DNA of 64,000 bases from an uncultured Candidatus Saccharibacteria bacterium (GTDB taxonomy: Bacteria > Patescibacteriota > Doudnabacteria > UBA920): assembly GCA_964483665.1 (NCBI GenBank), contig CAZACP010000004.1, positions 7,399-71,398 on the forward strand, given 5' to 3'. The notes below the pieces were generated by a model. The model made no database searches, was not told the origin of the DNA, and saw only the letters and a list, made by a program, of their open reading frames with translations. How positions within the stretch are numbered: the stretch's first letter is position 1; each line of letters opens with the position of its first letter. The position numbers and the translations under genes are program-made. This document shows, in pieces, positions 1 to 63,662 of this stretch.

Positions 1-974
1 CCGCTCGCGTAGGCTTTAAAGTGTTTGCGCATTATGAAAAAAGATTTTTGGCCGCCCAGCTTTTCCTGAAACAATTTAGCATGCTCAAGAGCAACCGTTA
101 GTCGTTCCTTTACTGATGGTTGATAGTTGTCTTCGCGGAACATCCAGGGAAAGCCAAAAGCGCCTCTTGCTATCATAACTCCGTCGCAGCCTGTTTCTGC
201 CATTCGCGACAAGCCTTCCGTGCGAGACTTAACATCGCCATTGCCAATAATTAAAGTTTTTGATTGTAAAGTATTTCTAACATTAACAGCTTTTTTTACC
301 TCGACCCAACTAGCAGGCACTTTGCTTTTTTCTTGCTTGGTTCTTGCGTGCAAAGTTATAGCCGCCAAATTATGTTTGAGCAAATGTCCTATCCAGATTT
401 CGGTTTCAGGTTTAGAATATCCGGTTCTTGTTTTTACAGAGACCGGCAAACTACCAGCTCCTTTTATGGTTGCTTCGATGATCTCTGATGCCAAAACTGG
501 ATTGCGAATTAAAGCCGCGCACGCTCCTATGCCAATTTCCTTGTCCTGCGGGCAGCCCATATTTATATCTATGCCGTCAAAACCTAAATTCACCATTAAC
601 TTACTCGCTTCATAAAACTTTTCCGGGTCAGTCCCCCATATTTGCGCAACTATTGGCCTTTGATTTTCCGTGTATTCCAAATCTATTTTAAGCCGCTCAA
701 AACCAGTAGGATGCAGTATGCCATCCACATTTATAAACTCAGTAAACATAACGAACGCATTGCCTTTTTTTGTCTCCTCCTCCCCTGGCGAGGGGAGGAT
801 GCCCGATAGGGCAGGAGAGGTTGCTGTGGTCGTGTTATCGTTATTGTTATGAGTAATAGTTTTTACTCCCCCGCTATACTTAGCAAACATTTCCCTAAAC
901 ACCACGTCTGTAACTTCTTCCATAGGTGCTAGACAAAAAATGGGTCTATTAAGTTGTTGCCAAAAGTTAGACAT
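1..974 (-). CDS. dus: tRNA-dihydrouridine synthase (partial; 3' end beyond window start)
   Basis: The minus-strand frame is open from the window edge to an ATG at 972-974. The N-terminus MSNFWQQLNRPIFCLAPMEEVTDVVFREMF matches the LAPMxxVTDxxFR motif of Dus enzymes. It is absent from the ORF track because it has no in-window stop. It contains a roughly 35-aa low-complexity in-frame insert. Confidence 0.8.
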   Translation of the reverse strand, partial: MSNFWQQLNRPIFCLAPMEEVTDVVFREMFAKYSGGVKTITHNNNDNTTTATSPALSGILPSPGEEETKKGNAFVMFTEFINVDGILHPTGFERLKIDLEYTENQRPIVAQIWGTDPEKFYEASKLMVNLGFDGIDINMGCPQDKEIGIGACAALIRNPVLASEIIEATIKGAGSLPVSVKTRTGYSKPETEIWIGHLLKHNLAAITLHARTKQEKSKVPASWVEVKKAVNVRNTLQSKTLIIGNGDVKSRTEGLSRMAETGCDGVMIARGAFGFPWMFREDNYQPSVKERLTVALEHAKLFQEKLGGQKSFFIMRKHFKAYAS

Positions 975-6203: not shown

Positions 6204-6241
6204 CTCTCTCTCCAAGACTTGGAGAGAGCCGGAGAGAGATT
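6204..6241. repeat. Family A palindromic element (CTCTCTCCAAGACTTGGAGAGAG core)
   Basis: It shares its core with the copies at 24627, 45092, 45512 and 63043 and with the intragenic copies. Confidence 0.7.
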
Positions 6242-6353
6242 AATTCGCCTCTGTCATCCCGGCCCCCGACCGCGTCCTCCATAGCTTTATACGAAGGATG
6301 GAGCCGGAATCCAGTAACTCACTTAACAACTATCTCGAGCAACTAATTATAAA

Positions 6354-17175: not shown

Positions 17176-18153
17176 TTACAGCTTCACTATTGCCCTTAAT
17201 TTAGCGGGCTTTGAGCGAGGATTATTTTTTAATTCGTTTTCAGAAGCAGTTACTATTTTTTTGGTTAATATTTTTCCTTGAGGATTTTTGCCACACACAC
17301 ATTGAGGGAAATCTATTGGGCATACGCAGCCTTTACTTAAGCTATTAAAGTATTGTTTTACTATTCTGTCTTCAAGCGAATGGAAGCTTACTATTACTAG
17401 CCTGCCGCCCGGGTTTAAAAGGTCAAAACTTTTTGGCAAAAACTCTTCTAAGGCTTCCAGCTCATGGTTAACCGCTATTCTTAAGGCTTGAAATATTCTT
17501 CTGGCTGAATCATCGGCGCGATGTTTTACAGGCTTAGGAAGTGAATCATGGATTATTTGATAGAGTTCTGTTGTATAGCGGATTTGGCTCTTAGATCTTG
17601 ATTCTTGGATCTTCCTTGCTATCTGGCGGCTAAACTTTTCCTCACCGTAATCGCTAAATATTTTACTAAGCTCCTGTTCGCTTCTGTTATTTAGTAAAAA
17701 ACTTGCGTCTTCGGGTTTAGTTTGATCAAACCGCATGTCTAGCGGCTCTTTTTTCTGAAAGCTAAATCCCCGCCCAGACTGGTCAAGTTCATATGACGAA
17801 AGTCCCAAATCTGCAACAATGCCTGAAATATTATTAAACTCATGTTCTTTTGTTATTTTGTTTATGTTTTGAAAATTGCCGTGCACCGCTATCACTCCCT
17901 CTCCCTCTGGGAGAGGGCCGGGGTGAGGGTGTTTGATATTTGTCCGCCAGTTTGCGGATTGAAATTTGAAATTCTCAATCGCATCCTTGTCCAAATCTAT
18001 AACCAACAACTTGCCGCCCGGAGATATTTTTTGCAAGATCGTCTTACTATACCCTCCTCCGCCTAGCGTCGCGTCGACAAAATTCTCACCGGGCTTAGGG
18101 TTAAGAAAGTAAATAACTTCCTCAAGTAATACTGGAATATGTTCATAATTCAT
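17176..18153 (-). CDS. rsmH: 16S rRNA (cytosine1402-N4)-methyltransferase RsmH/MraW
   Basis: MNYEHIPVLLEEV...DATLGGGGYS and a C-terminal FHSLEDRIVK. It contains an in-frame repeat-derived insert. Confidence 0.85.
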   Translation of the reverse strand: MNYEHIPVLLEEVIYFLNPKPGENFVDATLGGGGYSKTILQKISPGGKLLVIDLDKDAIENFKFQSANWRTNIKHPHPGPLPEGEGVIAVHGNFQNINKITKEHEFNNISGIVADLGLSSYELDQSGRGFSFQKKEPLDMRFDQTKPEDASFLLNNRSEQELSKIFSDYGEEKFSRQIARKIQESRSKSQIRYTTELYQIIHDSLPKPVKHRADDSARRIFQALRIAVNHELEALEEFLPKSFDLLNPGGRLVIVSFHSLEDRIVKQYFNSLSKGCVCPIDFPQCVCGKNPQGKILTKKIVTASENELKNNPRSKPAKLRAIVKL

Positions 18154-24626: not shown

Positions 24627-24670
24627 TTCCCTCTCCAAGACTTGGAGAGGGTTAGGGAAAGGTTGATGAT
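24627..24670. repeat. Family A element (CCCTCTCCAAGACTTGGAGAGGG TTAGGGAAAGGTTG)
   Basis: Matches the cores at 63043 and 6204. Confidence 0.7.
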
Positions 24671-25534: not shown

Positions 25535-26968
25535 TTACCTTTTAAAACTCTTCCCCGGCCTTATGGAAATATCACCATCGTTATCAACTTCCTTAACTCT
25601 CCCAAAACCTACGCTGTCCCTAAATACTTTCCCTGCCTTTAAAACCGGGGCGTAAGACAAAGTAAATTTGCCGTATTTGGCGTTTACAACATCTATCGCG
25701 CGAGTAAGCGAAGCTTTGGCCGTTTGTTTTTTAAACAAAGACTGCTGAAGAATAAAAGGCTTAAGGCCTGCTACGGTAACGCCTATTAATTTACAATTGG
25801 CGATGATTTTATGTATATCGGTATAATTCTTTATAATATGCCTGGCTTCCCAAAATAAATCCCTTGCGTCAAAAATATCGGTAGACAATTTTGCAGAATG
25901 CCCGTAACTGTTATAATCGCCGTCGCGCACATACGCCACCACAATATTGCCCATTAATTTTTTGCGCCTAAGCCTCTCCCCCACCATTTCGCAAAGCTTG
26001 TATAAAACCGGCTCAAAAAATTCCGGCTTTCTGTATTCCTTAGGCAGAGTATACATATGGCCGATTGATTTTATACTTTCATCAAAATTCACTTTTGCTT
26101 TCCAGCTACCGCTTAACTGTCCCATATGGTGAAGGTGATAGCCGTTAATGCCAAACACTCGCACCAGTTTGCTTAAGGGGTAATCGCGCAGCTCTTTTAA
26201 AGTTTTTATGCCAAGTTCGTTTAACCTTTTTTCCTGCCTTTTGGCTATACCCGGTATGTCGGTAAGTTTAAGACGAGTATAAAGATCTTCTTTGGTTAGA
26301 TTTAAAACCCCATTTGATATTTGAAATTTGATATTTGAAATTAGCACTATTCCATCCGGCTTTTTTAAATCACTCGCAATTTTTGCTAGGAGTTTGTTCT
26401 CCGCAATACCTATGCTGCAAGTTAAATAATCCCCCACTTCTTTTTTCATTCGTTTTTTTATTTCCACAGCTACCCTAACCGCTTCTTGCCAAGGATTGGC
26501 CAATAAATAATCTTTAATTTCTGCCATATAAAAATATGGGTGTTCTATATTTTGAAATTTGGATTTTAAAATTTGTCCGCCAGCTGGCGGATTATTTAAA
26601 AATTTAAAATTTAAAATTGGAAATTTAACATTACAGCTTGCTGTAATGTCCACATACGCTTCATCTATGCTGGCCGGCTCAACAAAATTGCTGTAGTCCC
26701 TTAAAACTTTTAAAAACCGGCGATGATACTCCCTGTAAGCATCGGCCCTTGTATGCACCAAAATAATTTTAGGATACAGCTTTTTAGCTTCCCAGACCGG
26801 CGTGCCGGTCTTTATGCCCCAGCGCTTGGCTTCTATGCTGGCGGCAATAATAATGCCGCCCAAATGTTCGCACACGCCTAAAACCTTGCCGCGGTACTCT
26901 TTATTGTCTTGCTGCTCCACCGAGGCAAAATAGCTGTTCATATCTAAATGCAAAATTACATTTTGCAT
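25535..26968 (-). CDS. dinB: DNA polymerase IV (Y-family)
   Basis: MQNVILHLDMNSYFASVE...SIDEAYVDIT...CSIGIAENKLLAKIAS. It carries two in-frame repeat-derived inserts. Confidence 0.85.
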   Translation of the reverse strand: MQNVILHLDMNSYFASVEQQDNKEYRGKVLGVCEHLGGIIIAASIEAKRWGIKTGTPVWEAKKLYPKIILVHTRADAYREYHRRFLKVLRDYSNFVEPASIDEAYVDITASCNVKFPILNFKFLNNPPAGGQILKSKFQNIEHPYFYMAEIKDYLLANPWQEAVRVAVEIKKRMKKEVGDYLTCSIGIAENKLLAKIASDLKKPDGIVLISNIKFQISNGVLNLTKEDLYTRLKLTDIPGIAKRQEKRLNELGIKTLKELRDYPLSKLVRVFGINGYHLHHMGQLSGSWKAKVNFDESIKSIGHMYTLPKEYRKPEFFEPVLYKLCEMVGERLRRKKLMGNIVVAYVRDGDYNSYGHSAKLSTDIFDARDLFWEARHIIKNYTDIHKIIANCKLIGVTVAGLKPFILQQSLFKKQTAKASLTRAIDVVNAKYGKFTLSYAPVLKAGKVFRDSVGFGRVKEVDNDGDISIRPGKSFKR

Positions 26969-27788: not shown

Positions 27789-27880
27789 ACAAAATTTTAG
27801 TGTTCGACTTCATGGAGAACCTAAAATTTTATCTTAAATACTCAATATTGTTCTCCACGAGGTCGAACAATATTCCGGTT
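27789..27880. repeat. Family H element (AAAATTTTAGTGTTCGACTTCATGGAGAACC + inverted partial copy)
   Basis: Same family as 42511-42552 and 42893-42964. No gene is enclosed. Confidence 0.6.
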
Positions 27881-27903
27881 TCATGATTCAAAGTCAAGAA
27901 AAA

Positions 27904-38260: not shown

Positions 38261-39478
38261 TTATTTTAATGCTTCTATTCCCGGCAGTTTTTTGCCGGCT
38301 AAGTATTCTAGCATAGCTCCGCCGCCTGTTGAGACGTGGTCTATATTTTCAAATTGGTGCGCTTGTCTTATAGCATCTACCGTATCTCCCCCGCCAGCGA
38401 CCACAAACGCTTTGCCTTTACCCCGACCACCAATAAGCCTAGCTAAAGCAAAAGTTGCATGGTGAAAAGGCTTTTTTTCAAAAAGCCCTAAGGGCCCGCT
38501 CCAAACTATGGTTTTAGCCGCTTTTATGTGTTTAGAAAACTCCAAAATAGTTTTTGGGCCGGCATCTAAAATTTGCTCATTTTCTCTTACCTCGTATGGG
38601 GCGCAGGAACGAATATTTTTTAATTCTTTATTTGCCACCACAACATCTACGGGTAAAACCAATTTGTTTTTATAATTCTTTGCTATTTGCATAGCGGTTT
38701 TCCTTTCGCCTTCCTCTACGCGGGAAATCCCTATTTCAAAACCCTTGGTTTGAAAAATTAAATTTGCCACTCCCCCGGAAACTAAAATTTTATCTGCCTT
38801 TTTGCCTAAATTTTCGAGTGCTCCCACTTTTTCTGAAAGTTTTATACCGCCGGTCATAACCACAAAGGGGCTTTTTGGGTGCCTAATAAGAGCGTCCAAA
38901 GACTTAATTTCCTTTTCTAAAAGAAGCCCGCAATATGAATTTAAATATTTTGTCACGCCCACTATAGAAGCCGCAGACCTATGGTCAACGCCAAAAGCGT
39001 CGTTTACATATACATCCGCTAAATTTGAAAGTTTTTTAGAAAATACCGGGTCGTTCTCTTCTTCCCCTTTATAAAATCTTAAGTTTTCTAAAAATACAAT
39101 GTCTTTTTCAGAAATTGCCTTTATTTGTTTTTGATGCTTGTCTTCCGTGATTTTTCCGGTGTAAAAAATTAAATGCCGTGCATGGTAATCCGGAACCCTA
39201 TGGTCTGTTTCAATGAATTTAAGTTCCAAAAAATCCGCCATTAGCTTTGCCGCCGGTTTTAGGCTGAATTCTTCATTCCATTTGCCCTTTGGCCTGCCCA
39301 AATGCCCGCAAACTATAACTTTATTTTTATTTTTTAGCAAATGTTTTATGGTTGGCACAACCTGCTCAATTCTAAAAGCGTCGGAAACTTTGCCGTTTTC
39401 TATAGGCACGTTAACGTCTACGCGCAAAAGAACAGTTTTGTTTTTAAGTGTTGATGTTTTAAGATATTTAATAGCCAT
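38261..39478 (-). CDS. pgk: Phosphoglycerate kinase
   Basis: LLRVDVNVP...VIVCGHLGRPKG...GGGA. Confidence 0.9.
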   Translation of the reverse strand: MAIKYLKTSTLKNKTVLLRVDVNVPIENGKVSDAFRIEQVVPTIKHLLKNKNKVIVCGHLGRPKGKWNEEFSLKPAAKLMADFLELKFIETDHRVPDYHARHLIFYTGKITEDKHQKQIKAISEKDIVFLENLRFYKGEEENDPVFSKKLSNLADVYVNDAFGVDHRSAASIVGVTKYLNSYCGLLLEKEIKSLDALIRHPKSPFVVMTGGIKLSEKVGALENLGKKADKILVSGGVANLIFQTKGFEIGISRVEEGERKTAMQIAKNYKNKLVLPVDVVVANKELKNIRSCAPYEVRENEQILDAGPKTILEFSKHIKAAKTIVWSGPLGLFEKKPFHHATFALARLIGGRGKGKAFVVAGGGDTVDAIRQAHQFENIDHVSTGGGAMLEYLAGKKLPGIEALK

Positions 39479-39480
39479 AA

Positions 39481-39533
39481 AACTACAAAACTACAGACAT
39501 ATACGAATCTACAGATACCTACAGAATCGTATA
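39481..39533. repeat. Family F element (CTACAGA motifs)
   Basis: aaactacaaaactacagacatatacgaatctacagatacctacagaatcg. The inverted partner is at 39925-39960. Confidence 0.55.
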
Positions 39534-39923
39534 TTAAATATTATTTGGATTTAAAACTCTCTTTATTTGTAATCTGGGGACGCGGAAGTTTACTAATAGA
39601 CCTAATTTTAAATTCGTTTGAATTAAATAACGCTTTAACTGATCATATGTTTCTTGTATTAAAAAAGGTACTGTTTTTAATTCTAGAATAATTCTATTTT
39701 CAATAATGAAGTCAGCAATATTACCAGAATCCCCTATCCTAACCTCTCTCTTATAATTCACGGCTCTGTTTTTAAATATAATTTCTATTTTATCGGCTAC
39801 TTGTTTTTCTCTAGCATATGGCCCCAGTTCTTTATGAACCTCAATTAAAATGCCATTGATCTTGTAAGTAAGATCGCCGTACAAAAATTCTGACATCTTT
39901 TTAAACTTAGTTTCTGTAGGCAT
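39534..39923 (-). CDS. GxxExxY family protein (PD-(D/E)XK-like), full length
   Basis: FLYGDLTYKINGILIEVHKELGPYAREKQ....ELKTVPFLIQETYDQLKRYL. Confidence 0.7.
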   Translation of the reverse strand: MPTETKFKKMSEFLYGDLTYKINGILIEVHKELGPYAREKQVADKIEIIFKNRAVNYKREVRIGDSGNIADFIIENRIILELKTVPFLIQETYDQLKRYLIQTNLKLGLLVNFRVPRLQIKRVLNPNNI

Positions 39924-39956
39924 CTGTAGTACATTTAATTCTGTAGTTCTGGTAGT

Positions 39957-42510: not shown

Positions 42511-42552
42511 GCAAATAATAGTGTTCGACCTTGTGGAGAACCTATTATTTGC
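42511..42552. repeat. Family H element (solo unit GCAAATAATAGTGTTCGACCTTGTGGAGAACCTATTATTTGC)
   Basis: 10-bp flanking stem around the conserved core. Confidence 0.6.
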
Positions 42553-42603: not shown

Positions 42604-42879
42604 TTACACCCATTTACCCCACTCTCCGCTAATTAATTTTCTTTTCTTTTTCTGGCCCCAACCTTTAACTTGCTTTTCTCTAAGTCTTGCTTCTTCCAAA
42701 TTTTCAAATTCTTCAATATAAACTATATTTTTAACTCCGTGCTTCTTGGTATACTCCGAACCTTCTCCAAGCAAATGCTGATTTCCGCGAATATCGTGGT
42801 TCCAAGTCATTCCGGTATAAAAAGTATCGTCCAGGCACTCCACAATATACACATACCATTTCCAGTTTTCTTTGGTCAT
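42604..42879 (-). CDS. GIY-YIG nuclease family protein (second copy)
   Basis: WYVYIVECLDDTFYTGMTWNHDIRGNQHLLGEG...IVYIEEFENLEEARLREKQVKGW. Confidence 0.75.
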   Translation of the reverse strand: MTKENWKWYVYIVECLDDTFYTGMTWNHDIRGNQHLLGEGSEYTKKHGVKNIVYIEEFENLEEARLREKQVKGWGQKKKRKLISGEWGKWV

Positions 42880-42892
42880 TGCTTAAAAATTT

Positions 42893-42964
42893 TAGTGTTC
42901 GAGCTTGTCGAGAACCCAAAATTTTACGTACTTAATAGTATCACAAGGTCGAATAATATTAAGT
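42893..42964. repeat. Family H element (direct copy plus inverted partial copy)
   Basis: ttttagtgttcgagcttgtcgagaacccaaaatttt ... tcacaaggtcgaataatatt. Confidence 0.6.
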
Positions 42965-43959: not shown

Positions 43960-44211
43960 TTATTTTTTTCTTTCTACCCAGGTTTTTTGAATCTCCAATC
44001 TTCTTCTTAAAATTCCTTTTTCTAAATCACCTTGTTTCATTGCTAAGTCTGTTGCCAGCTGCTCAAAATCATCATAAGTTTTACAGTTACCAATTTTTTT
44101 CATCCAGCGTTCAACTGAAGGACGATGATCTTTATATATCTTATGGATTCTTTCAGTCAAAACGGTTTCAGCTAAATGAATATCAAAATTTTTTTCGTTC
44201 ATAATTAACAC
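43960..44211 (-). CDS. Hypothetical 83-aa protein interposed between the two transketolase subunit genes
   Basis: AT-rich ORF fitted between them with 4-nt and 10-nt gaps. Confidence 0.4.
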   Translation of the reverse strand: MLIMNEKNFDIHLAETVLTERIHKIYKDHRPSVERWMKKIGNCKTYDDFEQLATDLAMKQGDLEKGILRRRLEIQKTWVERKK

Positions 44212-44220
44212 TTGAATATT

Positions 44221-45075
44221 TTATTGATGCTCGCTTGTTATTTGTCCTCGTAGAGTTCTTAGCTCGTCTAATGCTAATTTTGCCTGTTCTTTGTTTGGCG
44301 GGTTGCCGTGCCACTTATAGTCGTATTCCATAAAATCTACACCCTTGCCCGGTATTGTATGCGCAATTATTAAAGTCGGCTTTTCGTATATAGCTTTTGC
44401 TTCAAAACAGGCGTCTATAATTTGCTGGTGGTTGTGTCCATCTACTTCAAGCACATGCCAATTAAAGGCTTCATACTTTTGGCGTAGATTCTCCAAAGGC
44501 ATAACTTCTTCTGTATAACCGTCTATTTGAATATTGTTCCTGTCCATAATAGCGGTAATATTATGCAAGCGGTATTTGCCGGCAAACATAACCGCTTCCC
44601 AGGTTTGGCCTTCCTGCTGCTCTCCGTCAGACATAATTAAATACACTCTTTGGGATTTTTTCCTGTCCATAAGCAAACCGTAAGCCATGCCGCAGGCCTG
44701 GCTGGTGCCTTGAGCAAGCGGTCCGCTCGAAGTTTCAATGCCGGGCAAAGCTAAATTATGCGGATGTCCATGAAGCCTGGTGCCAAACTTTCGTAAAGTA
44801 AGCAGTTCTTCTTTTCTAAAATACCCCGCCTCGGCCAAAGTCGCGTACAAAACCGGATTTATATGGCCGCAGGAAAGTATGAGGCGGTCGCGAGTTTCCA
44901 TTTTAGGATCCCTCGGATCGTGTTCTAAAACATTAAAATAAAGGCAAGCAAAAACATCTGCCATACCTAAAGGACCCGCGCTATGTCCGCTTCCGGCTGC
45001 TAGCAGCATTTCTATTATGTCCTGGCGTATATCGTTTGATTTGTATTTTAGTTCGTTGACCGATAGTTTTTGCAT
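44221..45075 (-). CDS. tkt: Transketolase, N-terminal (TPP-binding) subunit
   Basis: GSGHSAGPLGMADV...GHP...DGEQQEG. Confidence 0.85.
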   Translation of the reverse strand: MQKLSVNELKYKSNDIRQDIIEMLLAAGSGHSAGPLGMADVFACLYFNVLEHDPRDPKMETRDRLILSCGHINPVLYATLAEAGYFRKEELLTLRKFGTRLHGHPHNLALPGIETSSGPLAQGTSQACGMAYGLLMDRKKSQRVYLIMSDGEQQEGQTWEAVMFAGKYRLHNITAIMDRNNIQIDGYTEEVMPLENLRQKYEAFNWHVLEVDGHNHQQIIDACFEAKAIYEKPTLIIAHTIPGKGVDFMEYDYKWHGNPPNKEQAKLALDELRTLRGQITSEHQ

Positions 45076-45091: not shown

Positions 45092-45131
45092 TTCCCTCCC
45101 CTCCTAAGGGGAGGGATTAAGGGAGAGGTTG
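45092..45131. repeat. Family A element (CCCTCCCCTCCTAAGGGGAGGG ATTAAGGGAGAGGTTG)
   Basis: Read directly from the sequence. Confidence 0.65.
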
Positions 45132-45135
45132 TATT

Positions 45136-45501
45136 TTAAAACCCGCATGCTTCTTTTATTTTACTTAAAACTCCTTGAATATTTGTGTCTATTTCATTAT
45201 TCCAAAATCTTAAAACTTTGTAGCCTATTTTTTCTGCGTACTGTTGTTTTCGCTTATCGTAAGCCGATATTTCTTGCTCGCTGTGCTGTCCTCCGTCTGC
45301 CTCCACTAAGAGCATTTTCTCTTTACAACTAAAATCATAAATATACTGTCCAATTTGCATTTGACGCTTAAATTTTAACCCATAAAACCTACCAGCTCTT
45401 AAATAATACCAAAGCTTGCTTTCCCAAGGAGTCTGATTTTTTCTTAGGCTTCGGGAATTGGTTAAATATGGCTCTGGTATAACTCTTTTGGCAGTATCCA
45501 T
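45136..45501 (-). CDS. DUF559 endonuclease-domain protein (Vsr-like fold)
   Basis: YGLKFKRQMQIGQYIYDFSCKEKMLLVEADGGQHS...YKVLRFWNNEI. Confidence 0.75.
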   Translation of the reverse strand: MDTAKRVIPEPYLTNSRSLRKNQTPWESKLWYYLRAGRFYGLKFKRQMQIGQYIYDFSCKEKMLLVEADGGQHSEQEISAYDKRKQQYAEKIGYKVLRFWNNEIDTNIQGVLSKIKEACGF

Positions 45502-45511
45502 ATGTTTTTAG

Positions 45512-45620
45512 TCTCTCCCCTTTTAAGGGGAGATGTCACGAGTGTATCCGAGTGACAAAGAGGTTGTATACTACATCTACTGCAACCTCTCCCTAACCCT
45601 CTCCTTAAAAGGAGAGGGTA
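45512..45620. repeat. Family A composite element (4 hairpins: CTCCCC/GGGGAG, GTCAC/GTGAC, GAGGTTG/CAACCTC, CCCTCTCC/GGAGAGGG)
   Basis: Same stem set as 63043-63138 in inverted orientation, but with different loops. Confidence 0.7.
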
Positions 45621-45645: not shown

Positions 45646-46284
45646 TCAATTTATCTCCTTCTGCAATTTTTCATACGCCACGTTTAAATTGTCCGCTTTT
45701 ACCAAAGCGCTGCCTACGCATATTAAATCCGCGCCGGCATCTTTTAGGCTTTTTATATTGCTTTCTCCTACTCCGCCGTCCACTTCTATTATAGCATGGG
45801 GCATAAGAGCGCGCAGTTGAGCTATTTTGTCTGGGGTGGATTCTATAAAAGCTTGTCCCTGTTTGCCCGGCACCACGCTCATAACTAAATATTGATCGGC
45901 AGTAATGTCTTTTAAGACATTTACTTCCGTATCCGGATTTATAGCCACACCGGTCTTAAAACCCATACTTTTTATTGAAGCAAGCGATTCTTTAAGTTCT
46001 TTTGCCGATGAAAAAGCCTCATAATGCACAATTAAAGTTTTAAACCCGCAAATTTGATAGTCTAAAAAGTCATTTGGCGCTTTTACCATTAAGTGTGCTT
46101 CCCATTCAAAGGCCGGGTTTAAAGTATCCATTTCTCCTGCTTCTAAAAGCTTATTTTCTATAAATTCCCCGTCCCCAAAATCTACCTGTATTTTACTCAG
46201 ACCGGGAATTTTACATACCAAATTCAGCCTTTCGTTAAAAGCTTCCTTAGTTTTTTCCAAAATTGCGGGAATTATAATAGCCAT
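45646..46284 (-). CDS. rpe: Ribulose-phosphate 3-epimerase
   Basis: SKIQVDFGDGEF...HLMV...IEVDGGV. Confidence 0.85.
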   Translation of the reverse strand: MAIIIPAILEKTKEAFNERLNLVCKIPGLSKIQVDFGDGEFIENKLLEAGEMDTLNPAFEWEAHLMVKAPNDFLDYQICGFKTLIVHYEAFSSAKELKESLASIKSMGFKTGVAINPDTEVNVLKDITADQYLVMSVVPGKQGQAFIESTPDKIAQLRALMPHAIIEVDGGVGESNIKSLKDAGADLICVGSALVKADNLNVAYEKLQKEIN

Positions 46285-51421: not shown

Positions 51422-53086
51422 TTAGCGTGGCAAACACGACACATCGGAAGGATTTTGCTGGCAATAAACTTCGTCTACAGTCGGAGGAGGAGGTGGTTGT
51501 ATATATTGCGTCTGATCTAAAGCTAAAATTGGCTGAATTTGAGCAACCGCAACGCAAGTTGCCTGCTCTTTAAGAACCCCAACACCTCCGGCGGGCCCGC
51601 CGGTTACGCCTTTAAATACAAAGTTATTTATTAAAGTTTGGGTTAACTGCGAAACAAAGCCGCTAATCATGCCTTCCGCGTTCTGAGCGCCAAGTTGTAA
51701 AAGAGCTGAAAAACTTGCCCGCTGCGCGCTTACTATGCTGCCCACCGACTTTGCCAAACCACTCTTAGCGGTATCGCGCGCTGCCTTAAGACCCTCGCTG
51801 CTTAACTCTCTGTCTGCATTTTTCTCTGCTTCACTTTTTGCCTGGTCGGCAATATCCTGATAATAAACCTGCCAACCTGTTGGGGAAGCCATAAAATCAC
51901 CCACTTTTGCCATTTTGGAATAGTAGTCAGGGTCGTTAGGGCTAATATTTTCAGGGGTAAAACCCAAATAGTCTTTTGCTTTAGCTTCAAAAACAGGCCT
52001 TAAATCTGCGGTATTTCTTCCACAGGAAAGCTGCGGTATAAACCGCTTTATAATTTGCCTGTCGGACTGCAATTGAACATACTTATTTAAGTAGTCGTCG
52101 GTGTATTGCCCGGCAACAAGCGCATCCGAGTAGTACAAAAAATTGGCGATCATATAATTACTCTCAATTTTGGCAATGAGCTTATTTAGCATTGTTCCCA
52201 TAAAAGAAACAAATGCGCTACGCAGACCTTCTTTTATAGCGTCCATAATAATTCTTGGTATATCACCCACTGTAATAGTTACGTCGCCGATTCCTAAAAA
52301 CGCATGCGCGGTTTTTACAAAGGGAATTTTTGACCTCTGGGAAGCGGCAAAATTTTTGGGCAAGCTAATACTTGCTATTTTATATTTGCCTGTCAGCTTA
52401 GTTAACTCGCTTGAATAATTCTTTGTGGCTTCGTTTATTGCGGTGTAATTTTGGTAGACATTTGGCCAAAGCTCGTCATTTTTTGTGTAATCCGAGGCGT
52501 CGTAATTTTCCGATACGTTTAAAAGCCTGCCGTAACTTTCTACGGCTAACACTATGTCTTTATGCAGACTTTCCGCTTCCTTTGGAACCAAAACAGCTAA
52601 AAGTTGGTCTTTGTAATTACTATAAAACTCCTGCGCTTTTTTAAGGCTATCTTTGTCACCGGTAAATAAAGTCGTCTGAAACTGAGCTGATTTGTTGTTA
52701 AAATCTATTGCCTGACCCACAGTTTCACTCAAGTATTTTTCCACCGCCGGTTTACCTGAGTCCTCCGAAATTTTTATACTGCCTTCGGTTATTTGGGTAA
52801 GTTGTAACGGCTGGTTGGATTTTAAAGCATTTTCAACTTCCTGTTTTATTTCCTGGTCAGTAATAATAGTCTGAAATAAATCTTTACTCGCCGCTTTGTC
52901 TATGGGAAGGCTGTTTACGTAAGCTAAATATTTTCTTGCAAGTTCTACATCGGTATTATTTTGAGTGTATTTTTTTTCGTCGGTAAATTTAAAAGACGTG
53001 CGGTTCCAGAAAGAAACGCCGATTAAAGAAAGTATTAACACAATTACTATTCCAAAATATTGTTTTTGTTCTTTTGTTTCTAGCAC
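51422..53086 (-). CDS. Hypothetical large membrane-anchored extracytoplasmic protein
   Basis: 554 aa with an N-terminal TM helix, no motif I recognise, and a C-terminal PPPPPT...C...C. Confidence 0.45.
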   Translation of the reverse strand: MLETKEQKQYFGIVIVLILSLIGVSFWNRTSFKFTDEKKYTQNNTDVELARKYLAYVNSLPIDKAASKDLFQTIITDQEIKQEVENALKSNQPLQLTQITEGSIKISEDSGKPAVEKYLSETVGQAIDFNNKSAQFQTTLFTGDKDSLKKAQEFYSNYKDQLLAVLVPKEAESLHKDIVLAVESYGRLLNVSENYDASDYTKNDELWPNVYQNYTAINEATKNYSSELTKLTGKYKIASISLPKNFAASQRSKIPFVKTAHAFLGIGDVTITVGDIPRIIMDAIKEGLRSAFVSFMGTMLNKLIAKIESNYMIANFLYYSDALVAGQYTDDYLNKYVQLQSDRQIIKRFIPQLSCGRNTADLRPVFEAKAKDYLGFTPENISPNDPDYYSKMAKVGDFMASPTGWQVYYQDIADQAKSEAEKNADRELSSEGLKAARDTAKSGLAKSVGSIVSAQRASFSALLQLGAQNAEGMISGFVSQLTQTLINNFVFKGVTGGPAGGVGVLKEQATCVAVAQIQPILALDQTQYIQPPPPPTVDEVYCQQNPSDVSCLPR

Positions 53087-53237
53087 AGTTTAATTGACAA
53101 GATTTACCTGCCCGCCAAAATTAATGTTTAGAATAAAAACAAAACAGATATTTATCAACAAAAAGCTAGTCGTTGGCAGGCGGGAAAGATTGAACAATAT
53201 TGACAAAAATAACACCGAACTATGCCTTTAGTGTATT

Positions 53238-53285
53238 TCATTTTTGTCATTTTTGTCAATTATTTAATTTTTGTCATTGGTTTTA
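53238..53285. repeat. Family G tandem TTTTGTCATT motifs
   Basis: tcatttttgtcatttttgtcaattatttaatttttgtcatt. Confidence 0.5.
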
Positions 53286-54857
53286 TTCAATTATTTCCCC
53301 GCCAAAAATTTTCAGCGCGTCACTTAAAACCGCAACTGGGTTTTGCCCTTCCGTAATTTTGTCAGGCAATTCTCCAACAATGCCCAAATTTTTACCGCTA
53401 ACCTCTGTTATTTCCTGGGTAATAAAATTTAAGTTTTTTTCAATAGTTTTTTTATCAAACTGATATTTTACGCTTATTACAATTTTTCCGTTATTTACGC
53501 CAATTATTTGGGCTGCCTTAAGCATACTACCTAGGGGGCCGTTTTTGTCTTTAATTCTAAGAACGACTTTTGGCCAAAAATCTAAAACTTCTTTCAAACT
53601 AACATTTTGGTCAAGCCGGCTTAAAATTTCGCTTTGCGGTTCTAAATCAGGCTTTATAGACTCTTGATTTTGCACTTTGATAATCGGCTGTTCGGTTACT
53701 TCTGTTTTTTCCCTTTGTGGTGCTGGAATTATATTATTTGGCTTTTTTTTTAAAGCCCCTTCAATCGCGGCAAGCAAAAGGGGTATTTCAGGACTGGGAG
53801 CGCCTTGCAGATCTTTAAACGACTTTAAAAACAGCCGGATTATAAAAATAATCTCGCTAATGCTTAAATTCTGTAAAACCCCCTCATTCTGCCCTGTAAT
53901 TTTTTTAACCATTAAGACTCTTAAGTGTTCTAAGAAATCTTTGTTAAAAGCGTTAAAATCAACTCCGGCTTCCAGCAAACGGTCAAAATATTCCGGAATT
54001 TCATTGGCCTTTCCTTCAGAAATAAGCTCTGTAAGTTCAGCTAACAGTGCTGTGTCCGTGATTCCTAAAATTGTTCTAATGTCGCCCAACGAAGTGCTGT
54101 TCCCCAGAGTTGAAATCTTGTCTAAAATAGAAAGCGCGTCGCGCATTCCGCCGCCCGCGTTTTGGGCGACTAAATCTAAAACTTCTTCCGGGTAGCTTAA
54201 ATTCTCTTTGTTTACAATATTTTTTAAATGCTCTTTAATATCTGCCGCTGAATATGCTTTAAAATCAAACCGCTGGGTGCGGGAAATTATAGTAGCCGGA
54301 ACTTTTTGAATTTCCGTGGTAGCCAGAATAAATATAGCGTGTTTGGGAGGTTCTTCTAAAGTTTTTAAAAGCGCGTTAAAAGCGCCTTTGGAAAGCATAT
54401 GCACTTCGTCTATTATAAATACTTTATATTTGCCTAAGGTTGGAGAAAATTTAACGTGGTCAATAATATCCCTGACATTGTCTACCCCGGTATTGGAAGC
54501 CGCGTCTATTTCTATTAGGTCAATAAAGTTGTTGTTTTCAATTGCCTTGCAAACACTGCACTCCCCGCACGCATCCCCCAAAGCACCAGGCGAAGCCTGT
54601 ACATTATTTTTCTCCCCATCTGGGGGGAGATGTCCGGCCGACAGGGCGGATAGAGAGGGTTGATTATTCAGACAGTTAACGCTTTTTGCGAATATCCTAG
54701 CCACGCTGGTTTTTCCAACTCCTCTGCTGCCAATAAATAAATAAGCATGGGCAAAAGCACCCCCGGCGATTTGGTTTTTAAGGGTTTTAATTATTGCTTT
54801 TTGACCAACAACCTGAGCAAAAGTTTGAGGTCTATATTTTCGGTAAAGTACAGCCAT
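53283..54857 (-). CDS. dnaX: DNA polymerase III subunit gamma/tau
   Basis: MAVLYRKYRPQTF...GSRGVGKTS...DEVHML and a zinc module CGECSVC. A repeat-derived insert sits next to the zinc module. Confidence 0.85.
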   Translation of the reverse strand: MAVLYRKYRPQTFAQVVGQKAIIKTLKNQIAGGAFAHAYLFIGSRGVGKTSVARIFAKSVNCLNNQPSLSALSAGHLPPDGEKNNVQASPGALGDACGECSVCKAIENNNFIDLIEIDAASNTGVDNVRDIIDHVKFSPTLGKYKVFIIDEVHMLSKGAFNALLKTLEEPPKHAIFILATTEIQKVPATIISRTQRFDFKAYSAADIKEHLKNIVNKENLSYPEEVLDLVAQNAGGGMRDALSILDKISTLGNSTSLGDIRTILGITDTALLAELTELISEGKANEIPEYFDRLLEAGVDFNAFNKDFLEHLRVLMVKKITGQNEGVLQNLSISEIIFIIRLFLKSFKDLQGAPSPEIPLLLAAIEGALKKKPNNIIPAPQREKTEVTEQPIIKVQNQESIKPDLEPQSEILSRLDQNVSLKEVLDFWPKVVLRIKDKNGPLGSMLKAAQIIGVNNGKIVISVKYQFDKKTIEKNLNFITQEITEVSGKNLGIVGELPDKITEGQNPVAVLSDALKIFGGEIIE

Positions 54858-55012
54858 AAGAAAGATACTCGGATATTCATTGATATTACATATTAAGTGG
54901 GAAAGATTAATATCCCAATATCTAATATCCTTATTGGATTATACCACCGTCTTACATAAAAACAAAAAACCCATACTTCTGGGTTTATAATATCAAAATA
55001 TCCAATATATAT

Positions 55013-63019: not shown

Positions 63020-63042
63020 AAATAGATATATTCCTTATAGTT

Positions 63043-63138
63043 TCCCTCTCCAAGACTTGGAGAGGGTTAGGGAGAGGTTGAAAATTATTAACCTCTCTGT
63101 CACCTTTCGGGTGACATCTCCCCAAGCTTTCGGGAGAA
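63043..63138. repeat. Family A composite element in the rpsE-rplO spacer (where rpmD/L30 would normally be)
   Basis: ccctctccaagacttggagaggg ttag ggagaggttg..aacctctct gtcacctttcgggtgac atctcccc.. Confidence 0.7.
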
Positions 63139-63155
63139 TTATATTGTGCTTCGCG

Positions 63156-63662
63156 CTACTTGCGCATCTTGGCAAGGGCTTCCTTGCTCTTCATTTTGGT
63201 AAAAGCTTCGAAAACCGCCTTAATATTATTTACTTTGTTATTGCTGCCAAGCATTTTTGAAACAACATTTTTAACTCCGGCTAGTTCAAAAACCTGGCGA
63301 ACCGCGCCGCCGGCAATAACACCGGTACCTGGCCTTGCGGGCTTTAGCATTAATTTGGACGATTTATATTTAACATTAATTTCATGCGGTATGGTTTGGT
63401 TTACCAATGGCAAAGTAATCATATTCTTTTTTGCGGCGTTTACTGCTTTGTTTACGCTTTCGGAGACATCTGCGCCTTTTCTTAAGCCCATACCCACTTT
63501 GCCTTTATGGTCACCAATAACTACGAGTGCGCGAAAACGCATTCTTTTTCCGCCGGCCACAACACGAGTAACACGCTTAACCTCTACGGTCTTTTGGTCA
63601 AACTCGCGGGGTTCTCGTTCCTGCCCGTCTCTGGATGTTTTTCGTCTTTTTTCAAATGCCAT
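63156..63662 (-). CDS. rpsE: 30S ribosomal protein S5
   Basis: RVTRVVAGGKRMRFRALVVIGDHKGKVGMG. Confidence 0.9.
   Translation of the reverse strand: MAFEKRRKTSRDGQEREPREFDQKTVEVKRVTRVVAGGKRMRFRALVVIGDHKGKVGMGLRKGADVSESVNKAVNAAKKNMITLPLVNQTIPHEINVKYKSSKLMLKPARPGTGVIAGGAVRQVFELAGVKNVVSKMLGSNNKVNNIKAVFEAFTKMKSKEALAKMRK

Follow-up and report, generated by a model that had tools for sequence, protein, structure and literature searches.

The stretch of DNA analysed here (hereafter the window) comprises 64,000 nucleotides (64 kb) of contig CAZACP010000004.1 from an uncultured, low-GC bacterium of the candidate phyla radiation (CPR), the guanine plus cytosine (GC) content of the window being about 40%. 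Between rpe (ribulose-phosphate 3-epimerase, 45646-46284) and tktN (N-terminal transketolase, 44221-45075), and on the minus strand like both of these genes, lies a gene for a DUF559 protein, a YcjD-like member of the PD-(D/E)XK nucleases with the Vsr fold, which is bordered on either side by short hairpin-forming repeats named family A elements in an earlier note on this DNA. The presence of the DUF559 (Vsr-like) gene, as claimed there, was verified against the Pfam profile PF04480 (E=4.1e-37; 126.8 bits with a cutoff of 20.6; 104 of 109 profile positions covered), and residues D56, E67, D69, G70, and H73 of the catalytic-type motif D...ExDG..H are invariant across 38 aligned homologues, the window protein included. 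The only other Pfam family matched by the protein is REase_MTES_1575, with no match to the HUH/Y1 transposases (TnpA-REP). The alignment profile of the DUF559 homologues finds its nearest solved structure in PDB 3hrl, a Neisseria "endonuclease-like protein" (E=1.4e-32), and a remoter match in PDB 3r3p, the intron-encoded homing endonuclease I-Bth0305I (E=3e-4), in line with a PD-(D/E)XK survey which places Vsr, DUF559, and I-Bth0305I in one group (PMC3424549). Nuclease activity of the DUF559 proteins is predicted from their fold and residues. Between the window gene and its orthologues, non-synonymous divergence (dN) amounts to 0.10-0.27 and synonymous divergence (dS) is saturated, such that dN/dS can only be read as an upper bound; as this bound lies far below 1, the gene is under strong purifying selection and the nuclease is maintained.

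Read in the direction of the gene, the stop codon of rpe is followed by 26 nt, a one-hairpin unit (U1→), a 12-nt spacer, a two-hairpin unit (←U2), 10 nt, the DUF559 open reading frame (ORF) from ATG to TAA, 2 nt, a further one-hairpin unit (←U3), 17 nt, and the ATG of tktN (Table 1). U3, which continues the stop codon as TAA-aa-TACAACCTCTCCC..., is therefore the downstream unit and points inward; the earlier note had placed it 5 nt past the stop, a trivial departure from the 2 nt observed (4 nt if the unit is cut at 45131). The same unit is found immediately behind the stop codon in L015, L018, and L075 (L-numbers denote the compared loci or contigs). The upstream block, U2 and U1 in opposite orientation (45512-45619/20), begins 10 nt from the ATG (45499-45501), just as noted earlier, and measures 109 nt rather than the 110 then given. 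Its four hairpins were likewise confirmed when it was folded as single-stranded DNA with Watson-Crick pairs only (-28.6 kcal/mol, z=-7.1, 0/200 shuffles as good), and in this fold the 12-nt spacer forms the loop of the third hairpin, in which GAGGTTGTA pairs with TGCAACCTC.

The U1/U2 pair was also found in L122 and L075. In L122 (75% identity), U1→ ←U2 is followed by a third unit abutting the ATG, which represents the canonical state, and this gene-proximal upstream unit is missing from the window and from L075. L075, in turn, carries an extra unit right after the stop codon that the window lacks, and the break lies between two CAACCTCTC blocks of the same orientation. The window element is slightly decayed, having lost its gene-proximal upstream unit and, by deletion between same-orientation units, one downstream unit, and its upstream block is best described as a separate gene-less inverted pair rather than the canonical gene-proximal unit.

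Table 1. The DUF559 gene, the family A units, and a second nuclease site; positions refer to the window unless another contig is named.
Feature	Position	Strand	Description
DUF559 (YcjD-like, Vsr-fold PD-(D/E)XK) nuclease gene	45136-45501	-	intact, 121 aa
U3, one-hairpin unit	45093-45133	+	CCCTCCCC-TCCTAA-GGGGAGGG hairpin, ATTAA, GGGAGAGG, TTGTA
U2, two-hairpin unit	45512-45568	+	TCTCCCC/GGGGAGA hairpin, TGTCAC...GTGACA hairpin, AAGAGG-TTGTA; points away from gene
Spacer between units of gene-less inverted pair	45569-45580		12 nt
U1, one-hairpin unit with TTA loop	45581-45619	-	minus strand: ACCCTCTCC-TTTTAA-GGAGAGGGT-TA-GGGAGAGG-TTGCA
Solo gene-less unit, two-hairpin	778-823	+	intergenic
Solo gene-less unit	6204-6243	+	CTCTCTCTCC/GGAGAGAG, CC loop, GGAGAGAG; 17 nt past stop of + strand gene
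Solo unit	17897-17929	+	CCCTCTCCC-TCT-GGGAGAGGG-CCG-GGGTGAGGG; in frame within rsmH, encodes HPHPGPLPEGEG
Solo gene-less unit, TTA-loop	24629-24665	+	intergenic
Solo two-hairpin unit	54611-54664	+	in frame within dnaX, encodes ...NQPSLSALSAGHLPPDGEKN...
Left unit of second gene-less inverted pair, TTA-loop	63044-63082	+	between rplO and divergent gene
Right unit of second gene-less inverted pair, two-hairpin	63090-63137	-	partner of the unit at 63044-63082
PDDEXK_3 site	39479-39956; L001 15546-15685; L002 8076-8553		long imperfect palindrome of CTACAGA/TCTGTAG motifs in both alleles

All units of the window share one anatomy, namely a pyrimidine arm (CCCTCTCC or a near variant), a loop, the complementary purine arm (GGAGAGGG), then either a loop of 2-5 nt or another hairpin whose base, TGYC...GRCA, is conserved, and finally a purine block mirroring the purine arm (GGGAGAGG), mostly followed in the window by TTG. 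Nine perfect polypyrimidine/polypurine hairpins with 7-nt arms were counted where 0.1 would be expected from 200 first-order Markov simulations, none of which gave more than one. Each of the nine is a family A unit, and one further unit, with arms of 6 nt, brings the number to ten. The ten units are distributed as three at the DUF559 gene, one further inverted pair (63044-63137; fold of -28 kcal/mol, z=-6.4), and five solos. The one-hairpin form accounts for six of them, the second hairpin replaces the short second loop in the remaining four, and eight carry a GGTTG extension as seen at the DUF559 gene. The spacers of gene-less inverted pairs in the window genome span 7-12 nt. An Rfam scan returned no family at gathering thresholds and, under permissive settings, only sub-threshold chance matches such as RsmY, whalefall-1, Pab91, and DsrA, so that the units do not constitute a catalogued RNA family. 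A tblastn search with 120 homologues (E<=10) revealed no convincing DUF559 pseudogene remnants near the solo units, the best other matches (E about 1e-3) being a DUF218 gene and a PDDEXK_3 fragment. A terminator function was rejected for the units, since copies also occupy a divergent promoter region (63020-63159) and coding sequences. The purine blocks of all six solo units, U3 being counted among them (778, 6204, 17897, 24629, 45093, 54611), lie on the plus strand, and the GC skew is negative throughout the window; this may reflect a replication-strand bias as in single-strand-transposing elements, although six units are too few for a verdict (two-sided p about 0.03).

Family A is no local peculiarity, as by block design and sequence it falls within the already described and not organism-specific class of intrastrand-triplex repeats known as BoxC, PIT (potential intrastrand triplex), or TM (TMECO) (Hoyne and Maher, 2000). 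Holder et al. (2015, PMC4666352) described 23 TM copies in E. coli K-12, each composed of pyrimidine, purine, and mirror purine blocks, with TTA or CCG second loops and five inverted pairs. They also reported related motifs in more than 260 genomes, instability of the genome in the vicinity of the repeats, and triplexes that single strands form stably in vitro. The same three-block design is seen in the window at 63044-63077, which reads CCCTCTCC-AAGACTT-GGAGAGGG-TTA-GGGAGAGG with the third block an exact mirror of the second; the block sequences (CCCTCTCCC / GGGAGAGGG / GGGTGAGGG) are shared as well, and so are the second loops, CCG at 17897-17929 and TTA at 24652, 63067, and 45594-96. Moreover, window positions 17909-17929 are identical to the E. 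coli 21-mer GGGAGAGGGCCGGGGTGAGGG (HPG2 sequence) quoted by Kaplan et al. (PMC5100583), where BoxC-type repeats are also described as hairpin/G-quadruplex (HPGQ) motifs. Multi-copy dispersal is likewise common to both, the 64 kb containing 10 units, two inverted pairs among them, where 0.1 hairpins would be expected.

Several features nevertheless set the window units apart from the published repeats, including the clade-specific GGTTG extension (8/10), the second hairpin, by which the four two-hairpin units exceed the published second-loop limit of 1-6 nt, shorter G tracts, and a weak G-quadruplex potential; G-quadruplex formation was rejected as a conserved feature because the window units have two GGG tracts only. 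Two window copies lie in frame within genes, whereas an exclusively intergenic location is described for those of E. coli. The published circular dichroism and nuclear magnetic resonance data on triplex formation concern the E. coli sequence, and a triplex in the window units is predicted from their block design. Holder et al. stated that no transposase, integrase, or other mobility function had ever been found beside TM repeats (PMC4666352), and the published work reports no associated gene, in contrast to the window units that frame the DUF559 gene.

The association extends to E. coli itself, in which ycjD is the only close DUF559 gene and adjoins fabI: a BoxC unit supplies the last codons of ycjD, and a further unit lies downstream, ahead of fabI (L098 1740-1775 and 1945-1980, sapF-ycjD-fabI). 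BoxC was reportedly first noticed beside envM, which is fabI. An empty ycjD site in E. coli was considered as well and dropped, for the roughly 38% of complete genomes without sapF-ycjD-fabI carry in its place a resistance-nodulation-division (RND) efflux (eef-like) island upstream of fabI, which leaves no clean presence/absence comparison. No link between DUF559 and BoxC or triplex repeats was found in the searchable literature, outside of which subscription-only papers lie; the repeat class is hence already known, and its association with DUF559 appears new as far as that literature goes. One published observation agrees with the inverted-repeat architecture found at DUF559 genes, in that "DUF559 domain-containing protein" is 14-fold enriched in the set of genes for which flanking inverted repeats of the inversion type were predicted (PMC9881135).

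A one-genome-per-species scan that used catalytic-domain peptide patterns only yielded 80 loci (totals refer to 83 loci and 1.19 Mb) spanning Patescibacteria, Beta-, Gamma-, and Alphaproteobacteria, Deinococcus, Chloroflexi, Melainabacteria, Nitrospirota, Neisseria, Legionella, and enterobacteria, and the flanks of the DUF559 genes show the same unit design nearly everywhere. Three other CPR contigs with homologues of 62-74% identity differ markedly in gene neighbourhood, and all five of their DUF559 genes are framed alike, ...GGGAGAGGTTGTA standing immediately ahead of the ATG and the reverse complement of this sequence, TACAACCTCTCCC..., immediately behind the stop codon. Within 200 nt of DUF559 genes, hairpins reach a density of 2.3-2.7 per kb, compared with 0.08 per kb in the remaining 1.1 Mb. 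Among the 75 DUF559 genes away from contig ends, 68 have a hairpin within this distance as opposed to 47 of the 729 other ORFs of the same loci, and for hairpins on both sides the counts are 48/75 and 1/729; the contrast with the other ORFs has a Fisher p of about 1e-58. The earlier note would have given up its proposal had the adjacency proved no commoner than chance, and chance is refuted by these figures. The units are also oriented, pointing toward rather than away from the gene in a ratio of 42:6 upstream and 42:14 downstream. In the CPR copies inspected, a purine block GGAGAGG stands 2-6 nt ahead of the ATG and probably doubles as the ribosome-binding site. Co-orientation with the neighbouring genes (78% upstream, 67% downstream) was not used as evidence, being near the operon background and dependent on crude ORF calls. 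In L018 and L028, the DUF559 gene is found within an alternating array, ←U U→ gene ←U U→, in which 90-nt composites are directly repeated on both sides, like the arrays of repetitive extragenic palindromic (REP) sequences called BIMEs.

Units and nucleases were further found to vary together. The upstream unit matches the reverse complement of the same gene's downstream unit at 63% identity (purine arm, loop, and mirror block), compared with 45.5±1.4% for shuffled partners, as terminal inverted repeats would; protein identity correlates with unit identity (Mantel r=0.27, 0/2000 permutations); and gene-less units are closer in sequence to the units beside DUF559 in the same genome (67.8%) than to those in other genomes (58.6±2.6%), all three being comparisons which shared ancestry and genome base composition confound and which are accordingly supporting, not decisive. 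The match is clearest at the rpe|tktN junction of L104, L126, and L127, where another DUF559 subfamily (34-36% identity) is accompanied by analogous units of its own, arranged as CTCCTCCT/AGGAGGAG, a second hairpin, and GGAGGTGGTAG, then the gene, then CTACCACC....

Evidence for constraint on the units came from the comparison of the window with L075, whose DUF559 proteins are 83% identical with only 56% identity at codon position 3 (dN 0.10, dS saturated). The non-coding units U1 and U3 are 93-97% identical between the two (U1 38/39, U3 about 95%), and because this level of about 95% is retained where synonymous sites are saturated, the units are constrained, either by selection or by continual homogenisation. 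The two-hairpin module GGGGAGA-TGYC...GRCA-GAGAGG is recognisable from CPR to Brucella, Mesorhizobium, and Phyllobacterium (Rhizobiales) and to an Anaerolineales genome; its second stems vary in sequence and length and keep full complementarity through compensatory changes.

Presence and absence at a fixed position between conserved host genes could be followed at the rpe|tktN junction, which is filled in the window, L075, L122, L104, L126, and L127 and empty in at least 11 related metagenome loci (L105-L109, L113, L123-L125, L129, and L130), where it measures 14-77 nt and holds neither the gene nor a clear unit; in L105, only a short pyrimidine/purine stretch is present. The empty junction in these relatives identifies the whole U1-U3 block as an insertion. 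The junction is an insertion hot spot, for it also receives a small hydrophobic ORF (MKIFSLETKKH..) in one to three copies (L100, L103, L110, L112, L126, L127, and L134, the last with three in tandem). At variable positions elsewhere, two DUF559 copies lie no more than 20 kb apart in L011 and again in L015.

The two units located within genes tell a similar story. The DnaX orthologue of L018 (73% identical nearby) lacks exactly the 25-residue segment that corresponds to the dnaX unit, by which the unit is marked as a lineage-specific in-frame insertion, and solved RsmH structures show a gap at the position of the rsmH unit, which probably represents an in-frame insertion as well. These units add 12-25 residues in surface loops encoded by two essential genes. 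Since in-frame units in essential genes cannot be leftovers of a 450-bp cassette, units can insert alone. Rickettsia palindromic elements (RPE), said to have been described by Ogata et al. in 2000 as short palindromic repeats lying in frame in essential protein genes and tolerated as extra loops, would offer a parallel to the dnaX and rsmH units, albeit from another sequence family and host, and we know of no nuclease gene associated with them.

From the above, we infer with slightly better than even odds (a probability of about 0.55) that a compact selfish cassette of the form unit→ DUF559 ←unit occupies the locus, accompanied by gene-less derivatives which the nuclease recognises. In its canonical form, the cassette would hold DUF559 as its only gene, framed by two inverted BoxC/TM-type units with their mirror purine blocks facing the gene, and the solo units and inverted pairs would behave as non-autonomous elements. 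The DUF559 protein is hypothesised to bind its cognate unit, either as a hairpin or folded-back single-stranded DNA or as an inverted pair in duplex DNA, and to cut there, after which host repair or recombination would place copies of the units, and now and then of the gene as well, at new or homologous sites and maintain their homogeneity. The proposal in the earlier note that the nuclease may mobilise or target the repeats thereby stands as the best-supported reading, with binding, cleavage, and mobility retained as its conjectural steps.

A number of points weigh against this cassette. Holder et al. observed neither mobility of TM motifs nor strand bias in E. coli (PMC4666352). Short AT-rich direct matches accompany three of eight insertions (ATTATT at 54603-08/54663-68, ATTAA at 6199-6203/6239-43, and TATTT at 45089-93/45132-36); they may be target-site duplications or matches of the kind that chance would produce in AT-rich DNA, and other units show none, so that the case for duplications is not convincing. 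Gene-less units outnumber the gene 10:1 in the window and about 23:1 in E. coli K-12, and the ten strain-level contigs with an identical protein also have identical flanks, so that ongoing movement is not seen among them. DUF559 is present on 48 of 72,556 plasmids, most of these matches being chromids or mislabelled chromosomes, and on 3 of 50,697 phages, and is thus nearly absent from these vehicles of spread between phyla. To our knowledge, biochemical activity has been reported for no DUF559 protein, and the family is very widespread. A PD-(D/E)XK hydrolase alone, furthermore, cannot carry out strand transfer, so that any movement must rely on host repair. The confounding of the co-variation tests mentioned above belongs here too.

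The closest parallel in layout is offered by the REP/BIME sequences and their RAYT partners (TnpA-REP; REPINs, "REPtrons"; PMC2817692, PMC3333891, PMC3116915), where one nuclease gene is likewise situated between inverted copies of a short hairpin repeat, many gene-less solo or paired copies are scattered through the genome, the repeat subtype matches the gene clade, and arrays of alternating orientation occur. RAYT, however, is an HUH/Y1 single-strand transposase with a covalent intermediate, whereas DUF559 is a hydrolytic PD-(D/E)XK protein of the Vsr fold, and the DUF559 units are unrelated in sequence and possess a third mirror block. The DUF559 locus therefore resembles REP/RAYT in layout only and is not a member of that family. 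With the Vsr very-short-patch repair endonuclease, as which several sources auto-annotate DUF559 proteins, the fold and the metal-binding residues are shared; DUF559 differs in that it belongs to PF04480 rather than PF03852, has no adjacent cytosine methyltransferase gene, and is an accessory, repeat-framed gene.

A related catalytic fold is found in the homing endonucleases of the Vsr fold ("EDxHD"), for example I-Bth0305I (PDB 3r3p), and in the free-standing Vsr-like endonucleases of fractured genes (PMC2677866). Their genes, too, are small and selfish and vary in presence or absence between conserved genes of the host, but are sited in introns or in the gap between the halves of split inteins and lack a framing repeat family. 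By this likeness, DUF559 might be a free-standing homing-type endonuclease at gene junctions, here rpe|tktN, that spreads by recombination after cutting the empty allele, with the units serving as an expression or insulation module only and the solos being relics or an unrelated repeat. The fold relationship to an intron homing endonuclease would fit such an account, as would the finding that one junction, rpe|tktN, harbours DUF559 genes of two unrelated subfamilies in different lineages (34-36% and 75-83% identity with the query) and is empty in many relatives, the GlyRS|M24 position common to L013 and L015, the GGAGAGG block placed just ahead of the ATG, and the recombination of strains of the window organism in mosaic tracts. 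We nonetheless consider it unlikely, because units of 33-54 nt insert alone and in frame in dnaX and rsmH, where they cannot be relics of a 450-bp cassette; because the unit sequence is kept across phyla with differing ribosome-binding and terminator needs; because the unit subtype follows the nuclease clade; and because the E. coli units, in the work of Maher's group as far as it is cited by Holder et al., have neither promoter nor terminator activity.

DUF559 could alternatively be a domesticated, host-beneficial, structure-specific nuclease that processes hairpins, triplexes, or G-quadruplexes at replication forks and so limits repeat instability, the framing units being operators for its autoregulation. 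In favour of this, the Vsr nuclease acts in repair, TM units adopt stable triplex structures in vitro and have been associated with local genomic instability, and the gene is under strong purifying selection and chromosomal rather than borne on plasmids or phages. A housekeeping repair gene would not typically be patchy, with an empty junction in many close relatives, or present twice within 20 kb at variable positions (L011 and L015), nor would it comprise several subfamilies with their own units, and the strict inward orientation on both sides would be left unexplained, on account of which we regard this account as improbable, a degree below homing. That abundant intergenic terminator-like hairpins merely happen to flank DUF559 is effectively refuted: units do lie in at least six other intergenic regions of the window beside housekeeping genes, and a terminator role was guessed for the 100 CCCTCTCCC..GGGAGAGGG palindromes of Enterobacter sp. 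638 in one genome paper (PMC2869309), yet both-sided framing is practically confined to DUF559 genes by the counts given above, the orientation rule and co-variation speak against coincidence, and the divergent-promoter and coding locations are unlike those of terminators.

BoxC/PIT/TM repeats have been catalogued since the 1990s in E. coli and hundreds of further bacteria and studied as triplexes, G-quadruplex switches, and instability hot spots, with no origin, partner protein, or mode of spread assigned to them. DUF559 is the first candidate partner protein for BoxC-type repeats, and the link merges an orphan repeat class and an uncharacterised nuclease family into one testable hypothesis. 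More tentatively, and at somewhat less than an even chance, DUF559/YcjD proteins could be the missing trans-acting nucleases of the BoxC/PIT/TM repeats, both jointly forming a new pan-bacterial class of selfish elements, from E. coli to CPR, that is spread and homogenised via host repair. If so, the action of DUF559 on folded-back (hairpin or triplex) units would also explain the local genome instability around BoxC/TM repeats. It follows from the window in any case that BoxC-type units can lie in frame within essential genes of reduced CPR genomes.

Two further small nuclease genes of the window had been likened to the DUF559 case in the earlier note, an analogy that holds for the architecture, each gene lying within its own inverted or direct repeats, and fails for the repeats themselves, which belong to different families. 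The window, L002, and L007 carry the PDDEXK_3 (GxxExxY-type) gene (39534-39923), which the near-identical strain L001 lacks. It lies in the loop of the palindrome listed in Table 1, the gene-less allele having a 50-nt loop instead, and the polymorphism falls within a recombination tract reported as 97-98% divergent. The GIY-YIG gene (42604-42879) is placed between two direct copies (42512-42552 and 42886-42926) of another repeat, AGTGTTCGAC...GGAGAACC..., of which a third, gene-less copy at 27791-27903 is a long palindrome. That DUF559, PDDEXK_3, and GIY-YIG genes each occupy a palindromic repeat family of their own suggests a general lifestyle of minimal selfish nuclease genes.

A few observations on the remainder of the window may be added. 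An ORF of 83 aa (80 or 83 aa depending on the strain contig) without a Pfam match is found at 43960-44211, between the split transketolase halves. In the comparison with L001, strain contigs match the window at 100% through most of 20 kb and at 91-98% in the tracts 38500-39900 and 52300-54900, a drop in identity which indicates mosaic homologous recombination between strains of the CPR population. Finally, most intergenic regions of the window contain long imperfect palindromes, the arms being built of low-complexity repeats of short period (TTCGGAT.., GTAGTTGG.., AAATACGAAAT.., TTTGAAATTTG.., and ATCTGTGTAATCTG..), and several families of these palindromes have copies at distant loci, for example 1561-1597/21574-21610, 33742-33825/62506-62573, 14694-14783/40988-41094, 26551-26633, and 55850-55886/42120-42156.

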